A stretch of 64,000 nt of DNA, from the NCBI RefSeq assembly GCF_003334405.1, contig NZ_QOWM01000002.1. One strand, given 5' to 3'. The stretch is from Escherichia coli. GTDB lineage: Bacteria; Pseudomonadota; Gammaproteobacteria; Enterobacterales; Enterobacteriaceae. Positions 49,657 through 50,571 of the stretch are shown in pieces (the stretch's first letter is position 1; every line of letters begins with the position of its first letter). The notes under the pieces are model-generated. The model searched no databases. It was not told where the DNA came from and saw only the letters and a list, made by a program, of their open reading frames with translations. The position numbers were made by a program, and so were the translations under genes.

Positions 49657-50316
49657 ATGACGCAGGATGAATTGAAAAAAGCAGTAGGATGGGCGGCACT
49701 TCAGTATGTTCAGCCCGGCACCATTGTTGGTGTAGGTACAGGTTCCACCGCCGCACACTTTATTGACGCGCTCGGTACAATGAAAGGCCAGATTGAAGGG
49801 GCCGTTTCCAGTTCAGATGCTTCCACTGAAAAACTGAAAAGCCTCGGCATTCACGTTTTTGATCTCAACGAAGTCGACAGCCTTGGCATCTACGTTGATG
49901 GCGCAGATGAAATCAACGGCCACATGCAAATGATCAAAGGCGGCGGCGCGGCGCTGACCCGTGAAAAAATCATTGCTTCGGTTGCAGAAAAATTTATCTG
50001 TATTGCAGACGCTTCCAAGCAGGTTGATATTCTGGGTAAATTCCCGCTGCCAGTAGAAGTTATCCCGATGGCACGTAGTGCAGTGGCGCGTCAGCTGGTG
50101 AAACTGGGCGGTCGTCCGGAATACCGTCAGGGCGTGGTGACCGATAATGGCAACGTGATCCTCGACGTCCACGGCATGGAAATCCTTGACCCGATAGCGA
50201 TGGAAAACGCCATAAATGCGATTCCTGGCGTGGTGACTGTTGGCTTGTTTGCTAACCGTGGCGCGGACGTTGCGCTGATTGGCACACCTGACGGTGTCAA
50301 AACCATTGTGAAATGA
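49657..50316 (+). CDS. rpiA: Ribose-5-phosphate isomerase A
   Basis: ORF 49585..50316; start trimmed to [18 protein letters not shown] (219 aa). Confidence 0.95.
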
Positions 50317-50571
50317 TCTGACGGGGGAACCTCCCCCGTTAAAAAAATTCTCTTCATTAAATTTGGTGACATGTGTCACGCTTTTACCAGGCAATTGTCG
50401 ATTGCTCTAAATAAATCCTCTAAACCAGCATATTCATCCAAGAATTACCTTTGCGTGATATTTCCTCAACATCGCGACGCAAACGTTCATATTGCCGCAA
50501 TATTATTTTTTGATATGTTGAAAGGCGGATGCAAATCCGCACACAACATTTCAAAAGACAGGATTGGGTAA

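Follow-up and report, generated by a model that had tools for sequence, protein, structure and literature searches.

The hairpin past rpiA defines the 3' end of the rpiA RNA in Escherichia coli and carries an A/T-only tail in Enterobacteriaceae

Terminators that lack a U-trail, termed 'I-shaped', were reportedly proposed for mycobacteria and other bacteria by Unniraman et al. in 2001 and Mitra et al. in 2009, and the proposal is said to have been contested for purified polymerases by Czyz et al. in 2014. For rpiA itself, the S1 mapping of Hove-Jensen and Maigaard in 1993 reportedly placed the transcript end in an adenylate-rich sequence following a putative stem-loop, and the authors are said to have read this end as termination. 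Precise steady-state ends at stable stem-loops without a following U-rich sequence, and with C exceeding G downstream, were described for Rho-dependent transcripts by Dar and Sorek (2018, NAR 46:6797), who attributed them to primary transcripts of greater length being cut back by PNPase and RNase II and proposed evolutionary switching between tail types. Adams et al. (2021, eLife 10:e62438, PMC7815308; Supplementary file 1, LB OD 2.0 sheet) give a 'primary' Term-seq 3' end of rpiA at MG1655 position 3058638(-); of their three growth conditions, a single one has this end in its curated list. The same study points out that mapped ends can be processed ends. The TERMITe supplements contain no entry for rpiA. 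The rpiA hairpin end is therefore not new: it has been mapped experimentally, belongs to a described class and is ordinary. The end treated below coincides in locus and sequence with that of the S1 and Term-seq studies, with no difference, and the contribution made here is confined to the comparative picture, namely the covariation of the hairpin, the A/T-only tract behind it and the switching of its tail.

The window is the whole stretch of E. coli DNA that was analysed, 64 kb in length (64,000 nt). In a base-for-base comparison, no mismatch separates its positions 49300-51900 (2601 nt) from K-12 MG1655, read in reverse orientation, and consequently the published MG1655 data apply directly to the window. 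Coordinates were converted by subtracting the window position x from 3108982, and the conversion was checked with seven published 61-mers. The same stretch is matched in all 5426 complete E. coli genomes, rpiA is annotated in 5426/5426 of the E. coli genomes, and its coding sequence is identical to MG1655 b2914. The spacer between rpiA and serA measures 255 nt, and the gene order is kept in 79 of the 80 species fetched, at a distance of 251-360 nt. The features of the locus are collected in Table 1. Two neighbouring elements were also noted. The segment 49371-49601 contains a 76-aa ORF, a LysR-type C-terminal fragment, which corresponds to the pseudogene yqfE in MG1655 and is annotated in other RefSeq genomes as a 'LysR substrate-binding domain-containing protein' CDS. 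An Rfam match to SIB_RNA at 52017-52167 on the - strand (133.8 bits, E = 1e-28) coincides with the annotated SibC antitoxin RNA / IbsC toxin pair, located downstream of serA in MG1655.

Table 1. Features of the rpiA-serA locus, in window coordinates.
Feature	Position	Strand	Remark
argP	~48336-49295	-	neighbour gene
yqfE pseudogene	49371-49601		directly upstream of rpiA
rpiA CDS	49657-50316	+	219 codons and TGA stop at 50314-50316; from the ORF list
Conserved TGATCTGAC	50314-50322	+	stop codon and 6 nt, running into the hairpin
Hairpin ACGGGGGAACCTCCCCCGT = acgggggaacctcccccgt = ACGGGGGA-ACC-TCCCCCGT	50321-50339	+	starts 5 nt past the rpiA TGA
A/T-only tract TTAAAAAAATT	50339-50349	+	after the last G-C pair; A7 at 50341-50347
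Steady-state rpiA RNA 3' end, ...CCCCCGUUAAAA-3'	50344	+	Term-seq coordinate transferred from MG1655
Palindrome block AAATTTGGTGACATGTGTCAC	50360-50380		core is the CRP-like palindrome; from footprinting
CRP-like palindrome GGTGA-CATGTG-TCACG	50365-50380		8/10 to TGTGA-N6-TCACA
C-rich, G-poor stretch	50395-50472	+	possible Rho loading region; C/G 2.4 at 13-nt step
Inferred serA P1	-35 TTGCCG 50492-50497; extended -10 TGATATGTT 50511-50519	+	start ~50526-50527
serA leader hairpin GCGGAT-GCAA-ATCCGC	50525-50540	+	core of a longer hairpin, 50506-50558
serA CDS	50572-51804	+	next gene, co-directional with rpiA

The perfect hairpin which the original prediction had placed after rpiA is found exactly as described. 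Its stem comprises 8 perfect base pairs, or 10 when A-U and G-U pairs are counted, and in the RNAfold structure the stem extends to 50319-50341. The RNA fold has an energy of -17.1 kcal/mol (z = -4.1), which was equalled by none of 200 shuffles. On the 3' side the hairpin is followed by T50340, the A7 run, TT and then CTCTTC, in agreement with the A-run expected behind it on the + strand. The second A-run, claimed to precede the hairpin on this strand, is absent: the preceding 7 nt are of the GATCTGA type (stop + TCTG), and the nearest AAAA is located about 18 nt upstream, inside rpiA. In E. coli there are merely two T's behind A7, and the - strand has its T7 run ahead of the hairpin. A consensus terminator scan with a criterion of at least 5 T in 8 nt leaves the rpiA hairpin uncalled on both strands, and it calls the canonical serA terminator at 51824-51850; the view that neither strand reads as a canonical intrinsic terminator is thus borne out. 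In terms of the canonical elements, a GC-rich stem-loop is present near the gene end, and the U run expected 0-2 nt past the stem is missing. Assignment as a bidirectional terminator was rejected, since the A-tract lies 3' of the hairpin and none is found directly 5' of it, and since rpiA and serA are co-directional.

The stop codon and the adjoining nucleotides, TGATCTGAC, show 80-100% column conservation in 80 Enterobacteriaceae spacers, which is higher than in the variable arms of the hairpin. Because the 5' arm begins so near the stop codon, a ribosome terminating at the end of rpiA would cover this arm, and judging from this arrangement translation could affect the folding of the hairpin.

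Upon transfer to the window, the published Term-seq end falls on the fourth A of A7, 6 nt beyond the last G-C pair, with GTGTCAAAACCATTGTGAAATGATCTGACGGGGGAACCTCCCCCGTTAAAA/AAATTCTCTT as the published context of the end (Adams et al. 2021, PMC7815308). Term-seq mapping after rpiA had been named in the original prediction as a way to check the hairpin, and this 'primary' end shows that the hairpin defines the rpiA RNA end. The exact position of the end could be off by as much as about 6 nt, as the non-templated A's added by poly(A) polymerase look like the encoded A7 in Term-seq and S1 mapping alike; furthermore, a steady-state 3' end does not separate polymerase release from trimming. Within one Term-seq dataset, the overhang past the last G-C pair amounts to 5-7 nt both at the canonical ends of serA and fbaA and at the U-poor ends of rpiA, pgk and mscS, and consequently the position of the end is uninformative on the mechanism. 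The rpiA end resembles a canonical intrinsic terminator, such as that of serA, in its GC-rich hairpin near the stop codon and in this overhang, and differs from it in having, in E. coli, A7 at the place of the proximal U-tract and in escaping the pattern scan. The U-poor gene-end hairpins of pgk (37532-37555) and mscS (40045-40073) also have published Term-seq 'primary' 3' ends, 4-6 nt past the stem, which makes rpiA one of several such cases in 64 kb.

The conservation of the hairpin was followed in the rpiA loci of 80 other Enterobacteriaceae species, which together with E. coli give 81 sequences, all different. A GC-rich hairpin is present a few nucleotides past the rpiA stop in 81/81 of them, with a median energy of -16.8 kcal/mol and a range of -6.3 to -20.9 kcal/mol. 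When the regions downstream of rpiA in the 81 sequences were aligned with MAFFT and submitted to RNAalifold, no consensus structure resulted, as the stem and loop lengths shift the register, and pair counting in one fixed register failed too, owing to the same variation in length. A covariance model, R1, was hence built from 14 same-register sequences and used for the alignment of 38 + strand sites. In this alignment, whose figures lean towards structure because it was fitted to the model, 90.9% of the cells contain standard pairs, compared with 46-69% in controls with the partners displaced by 1-3 columns, both sides have changed in 6 of 10 pairs, and the covariation score of 0.271 exceeds the 0.06-0.14 of the displaced controls and is reached by 0/500 shuffles. 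Compensations are also visible in the raw arms, as in ACGGGGG/CCCCCGT, ACAGGGG/CCCCTGT, ATGGGGG/CCCCCAT, CGGGAGG/CCTCCCG and GGGGCGC/GCGCCCC. On this comparative evidence, selection acts on the hairpin as a structure across Enterobacteriaceae.

It is hardly credible that such a hairpin is a chance inverted repeat, or a REP-like repeat, without a specific role at rpiA. REP elements and other hairpins are admittedly common in E. coli spacers, and the 64-kb window holds 25 perfect hairpins (at least 8 bp, at least 5 G/C), compared with 3.0 +/- 1.5 in Markov-random sequence, an enrichment of about 8-fold. The rpiA hairpin, however, is a single-copy element (5425 genomes, median 1 place in each) and is the sole match to model R1 in the window; its structure is kept with compensatory changes in 80 species, always directly past the rpiA stop, and an RNA 3' end maps at it. 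An Rfam search of the spacer gave chance-level matches only, none of them to the hairpin at E <= 10. The assignment as a REP/BIME element or a chance hairpin was ruled out by the covariation, the single copy and the lack of an Rfam family.

In a minority of complete E. coli genomes, IS421, an element of the IS4 family, is inserted within the rpiA hairpin. The target duplication of 13 bp, GGGGAACCTCCCC, is the hairpin core and is equivalent to window positions 50324-50336; an example is found in E. coli FORC 064 (L082, 1025-1045 and 2370-2390). The number of such genomes is uncertain, with 30 showing a split match and about 100 spanning the junction. The IS421-bearing strains represent natural mutants of the rpiA 3' end.

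The sequence behind the hairpin varies in a regular manner. Among the 81 sequences, post-hairpin positions 2-6 are A in 50-66 cases and positions 7-10 are T in 40-52, and G/C is nearly missing from positions 2-10. Taken from the last G-C pair onwards, the unbroken A/T-only tract spans 11 nt in the median (interquartile range 9-12) and reaches at least 8 nt in 65/81 sequences. The A-run is not peculiar to E. coli, and the A/T-only character of the tail is conserved. The boundary between A and T slides as a continuous series from A8T1 to A1T10/T10, reaching canonical terminators, and is represented by A8T1 (locus L052), A7T2 (E. coli), A7T4 (Citrobacter), A6T5 (Enterobacter), A4T7 (locus L012), A3T7 (Pseudocitrobacter) and T8 (Kluyvera). 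The orthologous site is scanned as a canonical terminator in Kluyvera, Klebsiella spallanzanii and Pseudocitrobacter, and the orthologues of 14 of the 81 species have the T-run that the scan requires. The occurrence of a canonical T-run at the orthologous site shows that the role of the site is transcript-end formation, with the type of tail switching in evolution.

This behaviour corresponds to the prediction of Dar and Sorek, as the tail type of the rpiA site switches between genera. The rpiA end likewise shares with their class a stable stem-loop at a precise end, the lack of a U-tail and an excess of C over G downstream. It differs in its conserved A/T-only tract, which is not required in that class, and in being missing from the bicyclomycin table of Adams et al., which covers another growth phase. 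With the 'I-shaped' terminators, rpiA has in common a gene-end hairpin devoid of a U-trail, from which a stop of E. coli RNA polymerase by structure alone is not implied.

Taking all this into account, the reading preferred here, with a probability of roughly 0.6, is that the hairpin both fixes and protects the rpiA mRNA 3' end and that release is non-canonical, be it weakly intrinsic, downstream or both, and is followed by trimming. The defining role is demonstrated by the mapped end, whereas the non-canonical release and the trimming are what we infer. On this reading the stem-loop at 50321-50339 sets and protects the 3' end of the monocistronic rpiA mRNA, and, with A's in place of U's, RNA polymerase would be poorly released by the classical mechanism. 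Release could take place inefficiently, at the moment when the all-A/U stretch UUAAAAAAAUU forms the hybrid, or else after the polymerase has moved on into the untranslated spacer, through Rho or on collision with the serA control region. The 3'-to-5' exonucleases PNPase and RNase II would then trim the RNA back until the hairpin halts them about 5-6 nt away. An overhang of 5-7 nt, generic to canonical and U-poor ends, is as expected of hairpin-trimmed ends. The three readings offered in the original prediction, a Rho-assisted stop, a structure-only stop or an RNA-stabilising element, are all compatible with the evidence; that interpretation was reasonable and is partly supported.

With regard to downstream release, the C-rich, G-poor stretch of the spacer was considered as a rut site. 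At finer steps, the spacer maximum is a 78-nt C/G ratio of 2.75, compared with a 99th percentile of 2.0 for the window, and the median of the orthologues is 2.3. The skew is equal across tail types, however, with a median of 2.22 for T-tails and 2.29 for A-tails (p = 0.47), and, being as strong in the lineages with canonical T-tails, it was downgraded as evidence for a rut site; from its distribution among the orthologues, it may stem from constraints of the serA promoter instead.

Pure trimming does not predict the exclusion of G/C over about 11 nt past the hairpin in 65/81 species, and this exclusion favours some real release at the site through the need for a weak hybrid. The main alternative, on the unlikely side, is that the site is a weak but genuine Rho-independent terminator, at which a strong hairpin and a hybrid made only of A-T/U-A pairs (UUAAAAAAAUU) suffice for release in or just past the A-run; the mapped end would then mark where the transcript is let go, or lie a few trimmed bases short of it. 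Such a terminator would account for the A/T-only tract adjoining the hairpin (median 11 nt, at least 8 nt in 65/81), for the prevalence of T at positions 7-10, where release would happen, and for the continuum of tails into canonical terminators. The energies, calculated with nearest-neighbour parameters attributed to Sugimoto (1995), cut both ways: at -7.5 kcal/mol the hybrid belongs to the weakest 5% of the 9-mers of the window (mean -11.9 +/- 2.6 kcal/mol), yet U9 has only -1.6 kcal/mol, so that the rA:dT hybrid at rpiA is about 6 kcal/mol stronger. Moreover, the stem-adjacent U-tract is, by textbook knowledge, the most conserved and most function-critical part of canonical terminators, and E. 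coli offers only two T's, past A7, in a tail on which the pattern scan makes no call. Interpretation as termination was reportedly also that of the S1 study of 1993; a steady-state end is, as mentioned above, blind to the difference between release and trimming. Finally, the bicyclomycin table of Adams et al. (Supplementary file 2, PMC7815308) lists no same-strand Rho region in the rpiA-serA spacer and 0 rpiA entries, which agrees with Rho-independent release and speaks against a simple Rho model, at a low power given that the table refers to OD 0.5, where the rpiA end is not curated.

A quite improbable reading, by comparison, takes the A-run/T-run as kept for the control of serA at the DNA level, through DNA bending at an A-tract or through an additional Lrp-type site flanking the CRP-like palindrome on its upstream side, and the hairpin as a mere exonuclease barrier. 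The tract does lie within the serA regulatory region, where 18-30 bp separate it from the conserved palindrome that follows at 50365-50380, AnTn tracts bend DNA according to the textbooks, and TAAAAAAATTCTCTT fits the reported Lrp SELEX consensus at 11/15 positions when judged by eye. On the other hand, where about 25 nt are inserted in Cedecea, Buttiauxella and their relatives, the A-run stays with the hairpin and not with the palindrome, and the Lrp footprint, which reportedly covers -158 to -82 from P1 (about 50369-50445), falls short of the A-run. The replacement of A by T in 14 lineages, furthermore, alters the sequence and preserves the A/T-only property.

The 230 bp that follow the hairpin are AT-rich, as predicted, with 36.8% G+C in 50341-50571 compared with 51.8% in the whole window. 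The accompanying claim that they contain no ORF holds in substance and fails literally: a mechanical 66-aa ORF exists at 50371-50571, but stop codons or shifts of frame interrupt it in almost every one of the 79 orthologous spacers, and, not being conserved, it was rejected as coding. Far from being an empty spacer, this region holds the known promoter and control sequences of serA. In 80 spacers, phylogenetic footprinting delineates as conserved blocks TGATCTGAC, AAATTTGGTGACATGTGTCAC, GACGCAAACGTTCATATTGCCGCAAT, TTTTTTGATATGTTGAA and the ribosome-binding region. The highly conserved TTTTTTGATATGTTGAA holds the extended -10 element of the inferred P1, 16 nt downstream of TTGCCG. Yang, Lin and Newman are said to have described in 2002 two serA promoters, of which P1 starts about 45 bp ahead of the ATG, together with Lrp binding upstream and CRP acting on P2. 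The inferred position of P1 presumably corresponds to the P1 start reported in that work. The CRP-like palindrome with its AAATTT flank is 80-100% conserved in the 80 Enterobacteriaceae spacers. Regulation of serA by CRP is attributed to Yang, Lin and Newman (2002), as cited in PMC8085971, and on the basis of its sequence the palindrome is probably the CRP site of the upstream serA promoter. The rpiA hairpin was also considered as a serA 5' regulatory RNA and rejected, as it precedes both the CRP-like site and, by about 185 nt, the inferred P1 start, and has no Rfam match at E <= 10.

The serA leader contains a hairpin of its own. The fold of 50500-50575 has an energy of -22.7 kcal/mol (z = -4.8), and leader hairpins of differing sequence are found at the same place in other genera. 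A Term-seq end at 3058437(-), corresponding to window position 50545, is located 5 nt past the leader hairpin (Rho score 1.17, 'No'; intrinsic terminator score 1.23), and a second 3' end lies at 50575, in serA codon 2 (Adams et al. 2021, PMC7815308). Since the outer stem ATGTTG/CAACAT overlaps the -10 element of the inferred P1, it can form only in RNA arriving from upstream, that is, from P2 or by read-through of rpiA, and the predicted fold may thus end or process RNAs started upstream. In the bicyclomycin table a strong Rho region is found antisense to serA, around 51300 on the - strand (MG1655 3057682 +; Rho score 42, p = 4e-177; Adams et al. 2021, PMC7815308), and consequently an antisense transcript that enters serA from the sibC side is stopped by Rho well before the rpiA hairpin.

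With the rpiA end already mapped, and with gene-end stem-loops without U's being a described E. coli class, these results are of little consequence for new biology. The locus nonetheless offers a clean and well-conserved example for one practical question, namely how much termination is obtained from a strong hairpin and an all-A/U hybrid in the absence of a U-tract, and the natural variants from A8T1 to T10 at one orthologous site constitute a ready-made allelic series for measuring it. It is doubtful that the A-run is itself a selected feature, either as part of a 'hairpin plus A/T-only tract' terminator or as a genome-encoded oligo(A) tail, and not a degenerate U-tract. If the oligo(A) version were true, the decay of the rpiA mRNA would be set through PNPase, RNase II, Hfq or poly(A) polymerase. 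If instead the terminator version were true, the A-to-T boundary would tune the read-through from rpiA into the serA control region, where the read-through RNA can form the long serA leader hairpin, ending at 50545. In that event, the sliding of the boundary between genera would represent an evolutionary rheostat of termination strength.
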